64,000 bases of DNA from Thermoplasmata archaeon (GTDB taxonomy: Archaea; Thermoplasmatota; Thermoplasmata; Thermoplasmatales; Thermoplasmataceae): contig JAKADL010000001.1 of NCBI GenBank assembly GCA_021820565.1, forward strand, positions 2,786 to 66,785. Direction: 5' to 3'. The position numbers and the translations under genes are program-made. The notes below the pieces were generated by a model that worked only from the letters and a program-made list of their open reading frames with translations, was not told where the DNA came from and ran no database searches. This document shows, one piece after another, positions 23,266-29,091 of this stretch. Each line of letters opens with the position of its first letter. The first letter of the stretch is position 1.

Positions 23266-24110
23266 TTTTTGGCCTCTGAAATAAGGTATTCTGAAATATA
23301 GTCAGGTATGTTGATCCCTGTTACCGGAACTGTATTCTTGAATTCTGTGTTCCCATTGACCTCATTGACAAAAAATCCATCCTTTGATTCCAGGATGTCT
23401 ATTCCGTAGATACCTGAACCCAGCGCTTTATGAATCTTTTCCACAATATCCTCTATTTCTGAGGTAATTTTCAGTGGCTCAGCTCTACCCCCCAGGGCAG
23501 TATTTGTACGCCAGTCCTCCCCTGATCTATACCGGTAAATTCCTGCCACAGCACGGTCATCTACAAGGAATACCCGTAAATCACGGTTGAAATCATTGAT
23601 ATATTCCTGCGTATAATTTACCTGGTATATAGGATACATATATTCTTTATATTCCGAGACGTCCATTGCCGCATAATAATCGTTCAGAAGAGAAATCATC
23701 CTACCCCAGCTACCTGTAACAGGTTTGGTTACAGCCCTTCCGTTGAAATCTGTTTTAAAAGATTCCAGAAATTTTTCAGTTGAAAACGAAACGAAAGTCT
23801 TCGGAATTCTAATTCCCTGATGTGCTAGCAGAGTTGAGGTAAACATTTTGTTCCCGGTAATAATAGTAGAGTTAAAATCATTAAGTATTCTGTGGCCTGT
23901 AAATTCTACATATGCAGTAGAATGTACATTTCTATAATATCCGGTGCTCCTCTGCAATGATATGTCACCGAAGTCATAATTTGCCTTTTCCAGATTAAGG
24001 TTCATATCCTTTACATTGAGCAATTGCACATCGATATTTTTATCCTGCATGGATTTCAGGATTGCCTTTTCCTCCCAGCGCATAATATCCAGCAACATAG
24101 TAATTTTCAC
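23262..24110 (-). CDS. lysX: RimK-type ATP-grasp ligase, LysX/ArgX (amino-acid--LysW ligase)
   Basis: 282 aa with ATP-grasp organisation and the typical N-terminus ...DIMRWEEKAILKS. 4-nt overlaps on both sides. Confidence 0.8.
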   Translation of the reverse strand: MKITMLLDIMRWEEKAILKSMQDKNIDVQLLNVKDMNLNLEKANYDFGDISLQRSTGYYRNVHSTAYVEFTGHRILNDFNSTIITGNKMFTSTLLAHQGIRIPKTFVSFSTEKFLESFKTDFNGRAVTKPVTGSWGRMISLLNDYYAAMDVSEYKEYMYPIYQVNYTQEYINDFNRDLRVFLVDDRAVAGIYRYRSGEDWRTNTALGGRAEPLKITSEIEDIVEKIHKALGSGIYGIDILESKDGFFVNEVNGNTEFKNTVPVTGINIPDYISEYLISEAKK

Positions 24111-25288
24111 GGTAAAACACCTTTCTCCGCGGATAGTATTACTTCAGACATGATGGCGGCGGCATCTTTAAGTTCTGAATCTGATATGACGTATGGAGGA
24201 AGCATCCTGATTATATTTATACCTGAATATAATGGAAGCACGCCTCTATTGATCATTTCCATCAATACCGGCAGGAATTTTATTCTTAGTTCAATTGCAT
24301 CCATCAAACCGAGGCCCCTTACTTCTTTGACTATTCTGGCATCCTCTATACCGGATCGTAATTCGTTTCTGAAAAGTTCTCCCTTTCTGGCAACACTTTC
24401 AATCATACCTCTGTCCAGCTGTTTGATTACTGCACTTCCCGCAGCCATTGCCAGAGGATTGCCACCGGTTGTAGAAGACTGCTCTCCTTTTGCCAGGTTA
24501 TCCATAAATTCAGGTTTTCCGGCAGTTATAGACAGTGGCATTCCACCACCGATACCCTTTCCTATTGTTATGATATCTGGTTTAATCCCGAAATTCTCAT
24601 GTGCCCACATCTTTCCTGTTCTTCCAAGACCTGACTGTATCTCGTCAGCAACAAGTATGATATTATTTTTTTCCGTTATATTTCTCAATTCTTTTACATA
24701 TTCCCTGGAGGGTATGTTTATTCCACCCTCACCCTGTACCGGTTCAAAAAATACCGCGGCTATGTCGGGGTCTTTCTCCAGTATATTTAAAGCTTCCATA
24801 TTGTTATATTCTATGAATTCAACGTTTTTCATCAGGAGTGAACCAAATGCCTTCCTGTATTTCTCGGAATAGGTAATTGAGAGTGCCCCGGCAGTTTTCC
24901 CATGGTACGAATTTGTCATAGCAATGATTTTGTGCTTTTTGGAAGATTTTATTACTGTTTTTATGGCTGCTTCCACGGCTTCTGCACCTATATTACCCAG
25001 ATAAAATTTATCCAGTCCGGATGGTACAATACCCGTAAGGTCCTTTATGAATTCTTCTCTGGCAGGTGTGTATTCAGATGCATGGGCTATTGATATGGTA
25101 TCAAATTGCTTGCACACGGCCTCTTTTATCTGAGTATTGCCGTAACCGAGAATGGCCACTCCATAACCGCCCATCATATCTATATAACGTTTGCCGTTAA
25201 TATCATGAAGTATGGCACCGCTGCCATTCAGGATATTAACGGGCAATCTCTGGTATGTATTTGCTATATGATCATTTTCATAATTCAT
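24107..25288 (-). CDS. lysJ: Class-III PLP aminotransferase, LysJ/ArgD type
   Basis: 393 aa with DEIQSGLGRTGKMWA and the PLP-Lys context TIGKGIGGG. Its ATG overlaps the stop of the upstream iscB-like ORF (ATGA). Confidence 0.9.
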   Translation of the reverse strand: MNYENDHIANTYQRLPVNILNGSGAILHDINGKRYIDMMGGYGVAILGYGNTQIKEAVCKQFDTISIAHASEYTPAREEFIKDLTGIVPSGLDKFYLGNIGAEAVEAAIKTVIKSSKKHKIIAMTNSYHGKTAGALSITYSEKYRKAFGSLLMKNVEFIEYNNMEALNILEKDPDIAAVFFEPVQGEGGINIPSREYVKELRNITEKNNIILVADEIQSGLGRTGKMWAHENFGIKPDIITIGKGIGGGMPLSITAGKPEFMDNLAKGEQSSTTGGNPLAMAAGSAVIKQLDRGMIESVARKGELFRNELRSGIEDARIVKEVRGLGLMDAIELRIKFLPVLMEMINRGVLPLYSGINIIRMLPPYVISDSELKDAAAIMSEVILSAEKGVLP

Positions 25289-26526
25289 CTAACCACCCCA
25301 GAGGAGACCCCATCCATAAGGGTGGGGAGAAATCTGAACTTAAACTGCAATCCCTTTCCATATCTGACCATTTTAACTTTCTTTATATTTACATCCATTT
25401 TCTTATCACCATCTCTTATAACTACTCTCTTTCCATAATTATGAACCCCAGAAACATTCCATATGCTGTTATTATACTCTACAATATCACCGGGTTGCAT
25501 ACTGTATCTCTTTCTCCTTATGGAAGGCCTGAATCCTTTCCTGTTGAGCTGGGGGGTTCTGTTGTTCCGTCTTCTCTGGGATACGCCATACACTGGTGAT
25601 CTCACCTGTTTATTTCCACCAGCAATGACAAATGCATCATTTGCATGGCTCTTATCAATGCCATATAATATTCTGTTCTTCTTTGTCATATATCCGAAGC
25701 TATAATCTGCACCTGTTAGTTCTTTTAATTTCCATCTCACTGTATTCATAAATGCTGAATCCTTCAATGTATTCGATGCTTCATTTCTAACTTCTGGATG
25801 ACCAAATTCTTCAGCTGTGAGATTATTCTTCTTCTGGTTGCAGGAATGGCATGCTATTGCAAGATTATCAACTGTATTGCTTCCTCCCCTTGATTTTGGT
25901 GTTATATGCTCTATTTCAAGTGGTACATTCTCTTTTCCACAGTATGCACATTTCCTTTGGAATTTCTCTAATAAGTATTCCCTTATTTTGTATCCCATAA
26001 GCTCTCCATGCTGGTATTCTACCCCTGATATTTCAGGGTTCTTCATCTTATGGGTATCAAAGGAAGCTACCTCTATAACAACTCTGGATACAGGAATGAT
26101 ACTCTTTATTTTCTCTATTAGCCTTATATGTGTTTCCAGTTTATGATTAATACTCGGTGCAAACCATTCCCCTCCCTTTCTTCCCCTGTTAAGGAATCTT
26201 GGCTTTCTGTACCATAATTTATTTCTTCTTTTTCCACGGTACATGGACTTTTCGATATTTAGTTTCGGCATATCGATTCTTGCTGTTACTTCACCAAATA
26301 GAAGTTCTCTTTGAGCTGTTACGGCAGAGAATCCTATATGCTTATATCCTGAATCTATTCCCAGGATTACATCCTGAGTGTCACTCTCACACTGCCACAG
26401 TAGCTGAATAGTAAAAGGAGAATGCTGTACTATCTTCGCTTTATGTTCCTTTAAGAGATGCTTTGCCTTTGCAGGTTTGCAAGGCATTAATGGTTTTCCA
26501 TCCATGTTTAAAATAAATACCTGCAT
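25285..26526 (-). CDS. iscB: IscB-type RNA-guided nuclease (PLMP domain, split RuvC with inserted HNH, C-terminal TAM-interaction-like domain)
   Basis: Numbering follows the 477-aa track ORF. PLMP domain MQVFILNMDGKPLMPC at aa 65-80. RuvC-I GIDSG (D122). Arg-rich bridge helix YRGKRRNKLWYRKPRFLNRGR. RuvC-II VVIEVASFD (E216). HNH CAYCG...EIEHITPKSRGG...DNLAIACHSCN. RuvC-III SHANDAFVIAG (H358, D361). I place the start at M65 (ATG 26526..26524) because IscB proteins begin at the PLMP domain. An in-frame ATG at 26718 is the alternative start. Confidence 0.8.
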   Translation of the reverse strand: MQVFILNMDGKPLMPCKPAKAKHLLKEHKAKIVQHSPFTIQLLWQCESDTQDVILGIDSGYKHIGFSAVTAQRELLFGEVTARIDMPKLNIEKSMYRGKRRNKLWYRKPRFLNRGRKGGEWFAPSINHKLETHIRLIEKIKSIIPVSRVVIEVASFDTHKMKNPEISGVEYQHGELMGYKIREYLLEKFQRKCAYCGKENVPLEIEHITPKSRGGSNTVDNLAIACHSCNQKKNNLTAEEFGHPEVRNEASNTLKDSAFMNTVRWKLKELTGADYSFGYMTKKNRILYGIDKSHANDAFVIAGGNKQVRSPVYGVSQRRRNNRTPQLNRKGFRPSIRRKRYSMQPGDIVEYNNSIWNVSGVHNYGKRVVIRDGDKKMDVNIKKVKMVRYGKGLQFKFRFLPTLMDGVSSGVVR

Positions 26527-26800
26527 AACGGCTTTAAGCCCCCCTGCAGGTTGGGGTAAGTCCACATCGGGGTTGTTGGAAAGGGTTTTTAAATTCGGCA
26601 CACTGAGAGTTTCCTCTCTGTTTAATGACGAATCGCAGTTGCCCCAGACTTGTGGAGCATCTGTGGGCGTGTATGTATTTCTCCTTTCTAATTTCTGTTT
26701 ATTTTTTATGTTTGACATATCATTTAAACCCCCTAATCAACCAGTTGCCCTCAAACCTCACGGTTCGAGCCCCTTCCTTCCGGGAGGGGTGATTGACTAT
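25289..26800 (-). mobile_element. Putative non-autonomous IS200/IS605-superfamily (ISC-type) element carrying iscB plus omega RNA, without tnpA. Ends not defined.
   Basis: The iscB gene interrupts an otherwise canonical lysZ-lysJ junction. G/C-rich imperfect palindromes lie at both flanks (26750-26789 and 25291-25330). No TnpA/Y1 transposase ORF anywhere in the window. Confidence 0.4.
26527..26800 (-). ncRNA. Candidate omega RNA scaffold of the IscB element (boundaries approximate)
   Basis: Sits immediately 5' of iscB on the same strand and is visibly G/C-richer than its surroundings. Contains stacked hairpins, several with tetraloops: minus-strand CTCGAACC-GTGA-GGTTTGAG (26750-26769), CCCCTCCC-GGAA-GGAAGGGG (26770-26789), GAGAG-GAAA-CTCTC (26605-26618) and CCCC(AA)CC-TGCA-GGGGGG (26539-26556). 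A long-range helix pairs GGCAACTG with CAGT(G)TGCC (26636-26643 with 26597-26605). Confidence 0.45.
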
Positions 26801-27551
26801 AAATCACAGTTCCATTTTCCATATTCTGGAATGGGCTGGAAATTGTTACCTGTTTTACGCCCATCTCCAGGGCTTCTATGGAAGCCATTAGTTTTTTGTC
26901 CATTCCTGTTCCTATATATTTCAGAATGCTCCTTATATATGCAGTATCTGCCCGCTCAATTATCTTATCTTCATAGTAAAGCCCGTTTACATTGGTCAGG
27001 AACGTCAATGTGTCAGCTTTTATTGAACCTGCAACATAGGCTGCAGCCCTGTCAGCATCGACATTAAGATAACTGTCAGTGCCGTATGCTATTGGCGAGA
27101 TTACAGGAATATATCCTGCTTCCATTAAATTTCTGGTTGGAACCGGGTCTGCCGAATCTACTCTTCCTGTGTATCCACCGTCAATTACCATCTTTCTATT
27201 GTTTTCATTTAAAATTATCAATTTTTCTTTTCTCCTGGCCTTCATAATGCCATTAAGTGTAACCGCCTTTATACCATGCTGGAGGAGATTGAGAACTATC
27301 TTCTGGTTGATCAGGTTCATTACCATTGTGAATATTTCCAGTGTACCTTTATCGGTATACCTGCTTCGTATTCCGTCCGGTGATGTAACAAATCTTGGAT
27401 GGTAATTAAAAGAGTCTGCATGGCTATCAAGATAGTTGCCGCCACCGTGTACTATGGCAACTGGTTCATTCAATCCTTCAATAATGGTATAAAGATTGTC
27501 ATTTTCCAGGAATTTTTCCAGTATACTTCCACCTATTTTTATTACTTTCAT
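26751..27551 (-). CDS. lysZ: Amino-acid kinase, LysZ/ArgB type ([LysW]-aminoadipate / acetylglutamate kinase)
   Basis: 266 aa with KIGGS at the N-terminus and the VHGGG motif. The last ~15 codons (SQSPLPEGRGSNREV) are encoded by the hairpin region assigned to the IscB element. Confidence 0.85.
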   Translation of the reverse strand: MKVIKIGGSILEKFLENDNLYTIIEGLNEPVAIVHGGGNYLDSHADSFNYHPRFVTSPDGIRSRYTDKGTLEIFTMVMNLINQKIVLNLLQHGIKAVTLNGIMKARRKEKLIILNENNRKMVIDGGYTGRVDSADPVPTRNLMEAGYIPVISPIAYGTDSYLNVDADRAAAYVAGSIKADTLTFLTNVNGLYYEDKIIERADTAYIRSILKYIGTGMDKKLMASIEALEMGVKQVTISSPFQNMENGTVIYSQSPLPEGRGSNREV

Positions 27552-28622: not shown

Positions 28623-28776
28623 CTACATTTTCTGCAGGTTTGATTTCTACAGTTTCTCCATTGATGGAGGATATTTCATAGCTCATTCCGCATGATCCAC
28701 ATTCAATTAACTCCCCAACCATGGAATCATCTGGCACACTGATTTTTTCTCCACATATCTTACATTTTGTTTCCAT
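28603..28776 (-). CDS. lysW: Amino-group carrier protein LysW
   Basis: Hand-translated 57-aa ORF, absent from the ORF track: METKCKICGEKISVPDDSMVGELIECGSCGMSYEISSINGETVEIKPAENVGEDWGE. It has a CxxC...CxxC zinc ribbon and the hallmark C-terminal EDWGE. GGGTGA Shine-Dalgarno lies about 8 nt upstream. First gene of the operon. Confidence 0.85.
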   Translation of the reverse strand: METKCKICGEKISVPDDSMVGELIECGSCGMSYEISSINGETVEIKPAENVGEDWGE

Positions 28777-28801
28777 TTTTATTCACCCTTTGTTGTGTTT
28801 T

Positions 28802-28845
28802 ACAAACAAATAGAAATTATTTATTACTAATAAATATTTGTTTGT
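28802..28845. promoter_or_regulatory. Inverted repeat in the lysW promoter region (candidate operator overlapping TATA-like sequence)
   Basis: Perfect 11-bp arms ACAAACAAATA (28802-28812) and TATTTGTTTGT (28835-28845) with a 22-bp AT-rich spacer, 26-69 nt upstream of the lysW ATG. Confidence 0.3.
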
Positions 28846-29091
28846 TATATTGTTATTTCTTACATTTAAAGTTTTTTTTCGAACTTAAATGCAATTATTA
28901 CTTAATTGTATTATAGTATATAAAATATACGAATATTGTATTTTTAGTATGAATTTCGTAATAATGGATTATAATACTGTACTGTATTTTATGTGCCCAG
29001 AATTCCATTACATAACAAAAATTGGTAAAATGCTTCTGAACTTTATAATTGCAAAAAATAATTAGAGATATAAAATAATCTTGATGTAAAA

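Follow-up and report, generated by a model that had tools for sequence, protein, structure and literature searches.

The minus strand of positions 26527-26800 in a 64,000-nt stretch of archaeal DNA (contig JAKADL010000001.1 of assembly GCA_021820565.1, positions 2,786-66,785; hereafter the window) most probably encodes the omega RNA scaffold, or HEARO RNA, of an IscB RNA-guided nuclease, carried on a 1509-bp non-autonomous IS200/IS605-family element that lies between lysZ and lysJ. We put the probability of this reading at roughly 0.93. The RNA family is known and curated, and the locus is a new, unannotated member of it in an archaeal operon. By analogy with the mechanism published for the family, the RNA would be expressed and processed and would direct the cleavage of DNA.

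A scan of the window against Rfam 15 gave a match to HEARO (RF02033) at 26556-26797 on the minus strand, spanning model positions 1-211 of 211 and scoring 102.4 bits where the gathering score is 83 (E 4.7e-21), and HEARO was the sole family above threshold in the window besides two tRNAs. The model ends at 26556 and the ATG of the IscB core lies at 26526 on the same strand, placing the RNA directly 5' of a gene for a protein with RRXRR and HNH domains. HEARO is the IscB omega RNA and is encoded in the 5' untranslated region of iscB (Goltsman et al. 2022, PMC9755519; Meers et al. 2023, bioRxiv 10.1101/2023.03.14.532601). The same arrangement was found in six bacterial HEARO-iscB loci, in which HEARO ends 25-84 nt ahead of the IscB match; these control loci came from a contig search with the IscB core protein, which returned only distant bacterial relatives (35-49% identity) and one archaeal fragment (L014; loci are given here by their L numbers). 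The HEARO RNA and the IscB omega RNA are reportedly associated with the work of Weinberg et al. 2010 and Altae-Tran et al. 2021. A first-pass annotation, made from the letters alone, had proposed, immediately 5' of iscB and on its strand, a structured scaffold of about 200-270 nt, and this proposal is borne out by the full-length match to the family's covariance model above its curated threshold, by strong covariation in an alignment of 47 relatives, and by a 5' end that coincides with the boundary of the transposon.

The four minus-strand hairpins on which that proposal was built are all present where they had been placed, namely CCCCTCCC-GGAA-GGAAGGGG (26770-26789), CTCGAACC-GTGA-GGTTTGAG (26750-26769), GAGAG-GAAA-CTCTC (26605-26618), which the Rfam alignment puts at the tip of a large 3' arm, and CCCC(AA)CC-TGCA-GGGGGG (26539-26556). 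The 287 nt from 26813 to 26527 have a folding energy of -86.3 kcal/mol, compared with -72.4 +/- 4.9 kcal/mol for shuffled sequences (z = -2.88), and none of 200 dinucleotide-preserving shuffles folded as well. The stretch had also been called G/C-rich, which is true of the stems but not of the stretch as a whole, whose G+C of 0.36-0.48 in 100-nt windows lies, at that resolution, within the range of the neighbouring genes (0.31-0.53).

The structure is conserved among relatives. With the window sequence as the nhmmer query, the region upstream of iscB was recovered in 77 stretches of related loci, with homology beginning at query positions 12-19 (the scaffold starts at 17) and full-length matches ending at approximately 257-261. 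On an alignment of 47 distinct sequences (A2), whose IscB proteins are 45-99% identical to that of the window, RNAalifold gave 36 pairs, 26 of them compensatory. When the Rfam structure was projected on the same alignment, 82.4% of 3008 cells held standard pairs, compared with 32-45% when the 3' partners were slid by 1-3 columns; both sides had changed in 47 of the 65 pairs, the covariation score was 0.44, the slid controls reaching no more than 0.16, and none of 500 shuffles attained any of the observed pairing or covariation measures. The 5' domain (26736-26797) consists in the Rfam alignment of P1, the enclosing helix of the family, formed by GUCAAUCA (26790-26797) with UGGUUGAU (26736-26743), around P2 (26770-26789) and P3 (26750-26769). 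P1 is 97% paired with three compensatory pairs and P2 is 92% paired with five, whereas in helix 13, the hairpin at 26605-26618, all four pairs show compensatory changes. A long-range helix joins 26729-26733 to 26569-26573 (A2 columns 87-91 with 333-337), with compensatory changes in four of its five pairs; its 5' strand reads GGGGG in the window and AGGAGG in most relatives and thus resembles a Shine-Dalgarno (SD) sequence. The enclosing long-range helix of the first-pass annotation was a different one, GGCAACTG (26742-26749) with CAGTGTGCC (26597-26605). This complementarity exists in the window sequence, but among the relatives the helix, taken as GGCAACTG/CAGT(G)TGCC, showed 58.3% pairing, the same as the shuffled mean, and scored 0.173 for covariation against 0.162; it is therefore a complementarity in one sequence without comparative support, and it is P1 that encloses the domain.

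The Rfam model stops short of the 3' end of the structure, and RF02033 has been described as being without downstream elements (Meers et al. 2023, bioRxiv 10.1101/2023.03.14.532601). In the window, the predicted structured RNA reaches approximately 26519, across the ATG at 26524-26526 and into the first codons of the IscB core. Its last part is a 3'-terminal pseudoknot (26519-26556, minus strand) consisting of a 4-bp stem, CCCC (26553-26556) with GGGG (26541-26544), an inner hairpin GGCUUAAAGCC (26530-26540), and a loop, ACCUGCA (26545-26551), that pairs with UGCAGGU (26519-26525) and so overlaps the ATG. The bulged hairpin recognized earlier at 26539-26556 is thus present in sequence, but it is better read as a 4-bp stem whose loop forms this pseudoknot. 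In the sub-type to which the window belongs (the window and five relatives), all 66 of 66 cells are paired and seven of the 11 pairs are compensatory, compared with 26-56% pairing in slid controls; the alignment used here was ungapped and had the variable inner hairpin removed (A4), replacing a MAFFT alignment (A3) that misaligned that hairpin. Most relatives have two tandem hairpins in place of the pseudoknot.

Some related loci depart from this layout. In a subclade comprising L058 (2457-4670), L062, L079, L087 and L089, the large scaffold hairpin carries a 25-nt insertion, and approximately 160-500 nt separate the scaffold from the IscB core; in L058, this spacer encodes a lysine/glutamate-rich repeat (KEKLIEKEKL...), which is a different N-terminal extension. 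L014 (2952-3066), from a Thermoplasmatota metagenome-assembled genome, retains only the last approximately 50 nt of the scaffold and the first 22 IscB codons (95% identical), adjoining a PIN/VapC-like gene pair, and is apparently the remnant of an element.

The limits of the element (25289-26797, minus strand) are fixed to the base, since the lysZ/lysJ junction is uninterrupted in a sister lineage. In contigs L097-L099, in which LysZ is 88% identical, the empty site reads ...GTGATTTGTA|ATGAATTATGAG, whereas the filled site in the window reads ...GTGATTTATA|GTCAATCA...GGTGGTTAG|ATGAATTATGAA, and the two differ by exactly 1509 bp with no target duplication. The 5' base of the element, 26797, is also position 1 of the HEARO model; the omega RNA end of the element is the right end (RE), and the 3' end of iscB is the left end (LE). 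The two ends carry similar 8-bp G/C hairpins, P2 (26770-26789), which is subterminal, and CCCCACCC-TTAT-GGATGGGG (25308-25327, minus strand), which is subterminal at the other end and lies inside the 3' coding region of iscB, and both covary in relatives.

Five independent copies of the element (the window, L016, L110, L111/L108 and L112) share the scaffold start GTCAAYYACC, have unrelated upstream flanks, and all end in ...AG|ATGAA. The sequence at the guide position thus varies between copies. With a guide length of approximately 16 nt, as given in the IscB literature, the predicted guide of the window copy, GGAACUGUGAUUUAUA (26798-26813, minus strand), is host DNA outside the element, the native 3' end of lysZ. 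At the other end, the pentamer ATGAA (25284-25288, minus strand; TTCAT on the plus strand, 5' of LE) consists of the lysJ start codon and two further bases, and AT[AG]A occurs at or near the extrapolated ends of approximately 19 of 22 more distant copies. From these ends we predict that ATGAA is the transposon-adjacent motif (TAM) and sets the specificity of cleavage. The predicted guide-matched target is GGAACTGTGATTTATA.

In the published IscB elements the scaffold comes from RE, the guide lies outside the element, read-in transcription is required for biogenesis, and upstream genes tend to share the orientation of the element (Meers et al. 2023, bioRxiv 10.1101/2023.03.14.532601). On this model, transcription reading in from the operon would yield an RNA with approximately 16 nt of host sequence (26798-26813) as its 5' guide, the remainder, from 26797 to approximately 26519, being the transposon-encoded scaffold that would bind IscB. 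After excision, the IscB-RNA complex would cut the restored lysZ|lysJ junction, where the guide match is followed by ATGAA, and this cutting would lead to retention or re-copying of the element; the occupied site would be spared because the scaffold replaces the TAM there.

The gene call in the window gives iscB as a 477-codon open reading frame (ORF) at 25285-26718 on the minus strand, with a stop, TGA (25285-25287), that lies outside the element and overlaps the lysJ ATG. Pfam assigns RRXRR to residues 67-238 (E 6e-58) and HNH to residues 257-306, and the protein shows the IscB layout of PLMP domain, RuvC I-III, arginine-rich bridge helix and HNH. The core begins at the ATG at 26524-26526 (residue 65), since residues 66-179 align with residues 4-118 of OgeuIscB (7xht), and the solved OgeuIscB begins at the position of residues 63-65. 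The call therefore places 64 codons, starting at the ATG at 26718, ahead of the PLMP/RRXRR domain, and the first-pass annotation had taken this extension as an apparent one that hides the RNA. The 64 codons are indeed added, but they are probably no artefact, as the frame, the ATG and the SD-like motif recur throughout the clade. Of 41 loci, 38 have no stop in the IscB frame over the 207-261 nt that precede the PLMP codon, a span covering the 3' two-thirds of the scaffold (approximately 190 nt), whereas the other two frames average 6.3 and 7.9 stops. Distances from conserved RNA anchors to the PLMP codon fall into 21 length patterns, 18 of which sum to 0 modulo 3, and insertions and deletions of other lengths compensate each other (+5/+1, +1/+1/+1, +1/+4/+1, +5/-5 and +4/+5). 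In an ungapped block of 21 sequences no in-frame stop was observed, as against 12.5 +/- 2.6 expected from a shuffle preserving column composition and base pairs (0 of 2000 shuffles), and the other two frames of the block matched their nulls. An in-frame ATG stands 8-20 nt (usually 8-10) after AGGAGG, in a variable loop, in 36 of the 41 loci; in the window, the SD-like GGGGG lies 10 nt upstream of the ATG at 26718. We rejected a leaderless mRNA as an explanation for this ATG, since inspection by eye shows no TATA-like box at a suitable distance and the SD-like motif is present instead. With a core-only query, 107 of the 120 nearest proteins have at least 40 residues before PLMP, and two short homologues, P0007 and P0047, examined as possible frame-disrupted copies, are cut by contig ends, though L109 does contain an in-frame stop. 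The six bacterial HEARO loci have 3-10 stops in the corresponding frame. Peptides that a translated extension would contain include NTYTPTDAPQVWGNCDSSLNR, EETLSVPNLK and TLSNNPDVDLPQPAGGLK.

Several observations weigh against translation of this extension. The query used to rank the metagenome loci contained the extension, which favours in-frame copies, and kinship alone can beat column shuffles without selection. Four loci are exceptions (L045, L061, L068 and L109, the last with an in-frame stop). The residues track the RNA helices and not protein constraint, as in helix 11, where GNCDHA with SVHG is swapped as a pair for SSVTLS with SEQS; since the sequence of the extension follows the helices in this way, constraint on the RNA dominates. 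Residues 1-65 have no predicted structure (pLDDT 26-31) in an AlphaFold model, which was built on a 33-sequence alignment and is poor overall (mean pLDDT 50.8), so that it supports only a weak statement on these residues. On balance, we lean slightly towards the view that members of this clade also translate the 3' two-thirds of the scaffold, giving IscB an unstructured N-terminal extension. RNA and coding use probably coexist, and translation from the ATG at 26718 would therefore not refute the RNA. No description of an ORF running through an IscB scaffold was found in the literature searched, although absence there is no proof of novelty.

The 3' end of the gene shows a comparable overlap. 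At all four distinct right-hand sites found in close relatives, the stop of IscB and the ATG of a co-oriented gene overlap by 4 nt, the gene being lysJ, lysX (in two Ferroplasma genomes), a COXG-family gene or an ORF of 121 residues (window 25284-25288; L108 1303-1306; L110 3422-3425; L111 3428-3431; L112 3434-3437). We estimate roughly that start codons make up only a few per cent of ATGAA sites, which makes the overlap unlikely by chance. The lys operon has been struck independently at two gene junctions in different Ferroplasma lineages. The overlap with start codons hints that the surviving copies may be those acting as an extra, translationally coupled cistron, an arrangement that would do little polar damage inside operons. 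Taking both ends together, we tentatively propose, at somewhat less than even odds, that one IscB clade, made up mainly of archaea (Thermoplasmatales and relatives), has its guide-RNA gene and nuclease gene fused in one reading frame, with an AUG inside the scaffold after the AGGAGG helix strand, that the nearest subclade reads through the far end to a TAM-supplied stop (ATGA) overlapping a co-oriented start, and that each transcript serves either as guide RNA or as mRNA. If the extension is translated, a folded transcript with its SD hidden would be guide RNA, whereas a transcript unfolded by the ribosome would be mRNA. A related idea has been put forward for IsrB (PMC9581776).

Certain features of this particular copy do not sit easily with a working guide RNA and nuclease. 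The window allele reads R-G-K-R-R (G162) in the motif that is R-R-x-R-R in every aligned relative; it has P389 where relatives have L or I; and variants of the iscB core in the population (25285-26526; L015 and L100-L107 compared with the window) show 14 nonsynonymous and two synonymous changes, as against none and seven respectively in lysJ. A tblastn search of the element and the whole window for a Y1 (HUH) TnpA found none, although the query used picks up TnpA next to related iscB genes in L026, L029 and L006; nor is there a second copy of the element within the window. The element may thus no longer be excised, in which case the selective use of the guide would have ended too. From the pattern of substitutions, the nuclease in this copy appears to be under relaxed constraint and the copy may be decaying. 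One might therefore regard the stretch as an omega RNA gene by descent alone, left in a stranded and decaying element and persisting, with no working partner or purpose, because it is embedded in an essential operon, where the insertion is fixed in 24 contigs from many samples. Against this, the ORF is intact in every variant seen, the catalytic residues D122, E216, H271, N294, H358 and D361 lie in columns that are invariant in the protein alignment (A1), the scaffold scores well above threshold with every helix intact and only two polymorphisms in 271 nt among the population variants, and a TnpA could be present elsewhere in the genome. We consider such a relic unlikely, at about one chance in four.

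The remaining alternatives grant the structure another role or none, and are much less probable than a relic. The structure might mainly control the translation of iscB in cis, sequestering the SD and the start codon, and not act as a guide in trans; the SD-like GGGGG/AGGAGG does form a strand of a conserved helix, the ATG at 26526 falls within the 3' pseudoknot, and a regulatory role has been suggested for IsrB, whose SD sits in the terminal hairpin (PMC9581776). However, the whole 211-position model matches a family for which guide function has been shown experimentally, a 5' boundary lying at the end of the transposon, next to a flank that varies, is required of a guide RNA but not of a leader, and the cis and guide roles are not exclusive, which together make a leader function alone very unlikely. 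More improbable still is that the hairpins are single-stranded-DNA ends recognized by TnpA and not RNA at all. P2 does closely resemble the hairpin at the other end (25308-25327), and the TAM, TTCAT, and the terminal TTGAC (both on the plus strand) are similar pentamers, but covariation over approximately 280 nt and 14 helices goes beyond what transposase ends need, conservation is not limited to the terminal 40-50 nt, an Rfam RNA model matches, and a DNA signal would account for P2 at most. Finally, the open and conserved frame, its ATG and its SD-like motif could be taken to mark an ordinary N-terminal domain of a longer IscB in which hairpins arise incidentally. This is contradicted by the covariation counts: substitutions are paired across helices while the encoded residues change freely (helix 11), and the segment has no predicted fold, no counterpart in solved IscB structures and an Rfam E value of 4.7e-21, and we give this explanation almost no weight.

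Returning to the omega RNA of a mobile element, its host operon is a LysW-type lysine/arginine operon of a Ferroplasma-related Thermoplasmatales archaeon, with which the element is co-oriented; the minus-strand order is lysW, lysY/argC, lysZ, [iscB], lysJ, lysX, lysK. The lysZ gene (26751-27551, minus strand), for the [LysW]-aminoadipate/glutamate kinase, has acquired a chimeric C-terminus, its native last three codons (NEL) being replaced by 15 codons and a stop (26751-26797) read from helices P1-P3, so that LysZ in the window has 266 residues and ends ...VIY+SQSPLPEGRGSNREV, compared with 254 residues ending ...VICNEL in Ferroplasma relatives. The 24 contigs with the same insertion (among them those of GCA_027376075.1 and GCA_027376095.1) likewise have the 266-residue chimeric LysZ. 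In L111, it is LysJ that is longer (398 compared with 393 residues). The lysJ gene of the window (24107-25288, minus strand) encodes a class-III aminotransferase (Pfam Aminotran_3, E 6e-99), and its start codon abuts the end of the element. Upstream of lysW, the intergenic region at 28750-29000 is very AT-rich (G+C 0.15-0.21) and is likely to be the operon promoter region, from which the omega RNA would need to be transcribed. Antisense to the omega RNA and the 3' end of lysZ runs an ORF of 196 codons (26477-27067, plus strand), with a similar one in L014; it most likely arises from the scarcity of stops in the sense strand and is not a gene.

Two further observations concern related copies. 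Y1 TnpA-like ORFs stand beside archaeal-type iscB genes in L026 (1139-1522, minus strand) and L029 (3668-4033, plus strand); that of L026 is upstream of the scaffold start on the opposite strand, outside the expected boundary of the element. In L016 (1-2315), the 5' part of a different IscB copy, with another left flank and guide, is joined to a 3' part and lysJ/X/K identical to those of the window, with 82% identity over the protein as a whole; either the assembly formed a chimera through the repeat, or two copies have recombined.

An omega RNA is the expected companion of iscB, and the main practical value of identifying this one lies in annotation, as the 477-codon gene call, the 266-residue LysZ and the antisense ORF at 26477-27067 all need the RNA drawn in. 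The locus also serves as a clean example from nature, in which guide, TAM, empty site and the two ends are all defined to the base. If what we read from the frame, the start codon and the SD-like motif is true, a guide-RNA scaffold would be constrained as RNA and as an open reading frame together, which would offer a transposon nuclease a simple way to balance guide against protein from one transcript, would explain how such elements live inside archaeal operons, and would bear on the cloning of compact archaeal IscB systems, in the choice of start codon and in the length of 3' scaffold to include. Overlap of the scaffold with a conserved reading frame across a clade may be a new variant.

Compared with HEARO/IscB omega RNA in general, the stretch shares the full-length model match, the position and strand relative to iscB, the guide at the 5' end outside the element, P1 enclosing two hairpins, the long-range helix and the large 3' arm. 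It differs in its archaeal host (Thermoplasmatales), in having approximately 190 nt of scaffold in a frame continuous with IscB, and in a structured 3' end approximately 37 nt beyond that of the Rfam model. With the ISGst-type IS200/IS605 IscB elements (Meers et al. 2023) it has in common a scaffold derived from RE, the lack of target duplication and of tnpA, an AT-rich pentamer TAM common to insertion site and nuclease, and co-orientation with the upstream gene for read-in; here, however, each site examined has its TAM at the start codon of the host gene downstream, and in the nearest subclade the iscB ORF crosses LE to a stop in the TAM. In the DtIsrB omega RNA, the tandem 3' hairpins SL7 and SL8 contact the PLMP domain (Hirano et al. 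2022, PMC9581776). Tandem 3' hairpins also occur in most of the relatives studied here, and in both systems an SD lies inside the omega RNA, suggesting translational self-regulation, but that of IsrB is in a terminal hairpin just upstream of the ORF, whereas here the SD-like motif is set back by approximately 190 nt more and the scaffold itself appears to be traversed by the ORF. The omega RNA (reRNA) of TnpB resembles the present case in that a guide-RNA gene overlaps the ORF of its nuclease, the same DNA thus doing duty as scaffold and as coding sequence (Meers et al. 2023, bioRxiv 10.1101/2023.03.14.532601), although there it is the 3' end of tnpB that is shared, the RNA carries its guide at its 3' end, and RNA family and nuclease are both unrelated. 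Finally, the core of the window IscB is homologous to OgeuIscB, as seen in its complex with omega RNA (PDB 7XHT, 7UTN and 8CSZ), from the first β-strand of PLMP onwards, whereas residues 1-64 have no counterpart there.

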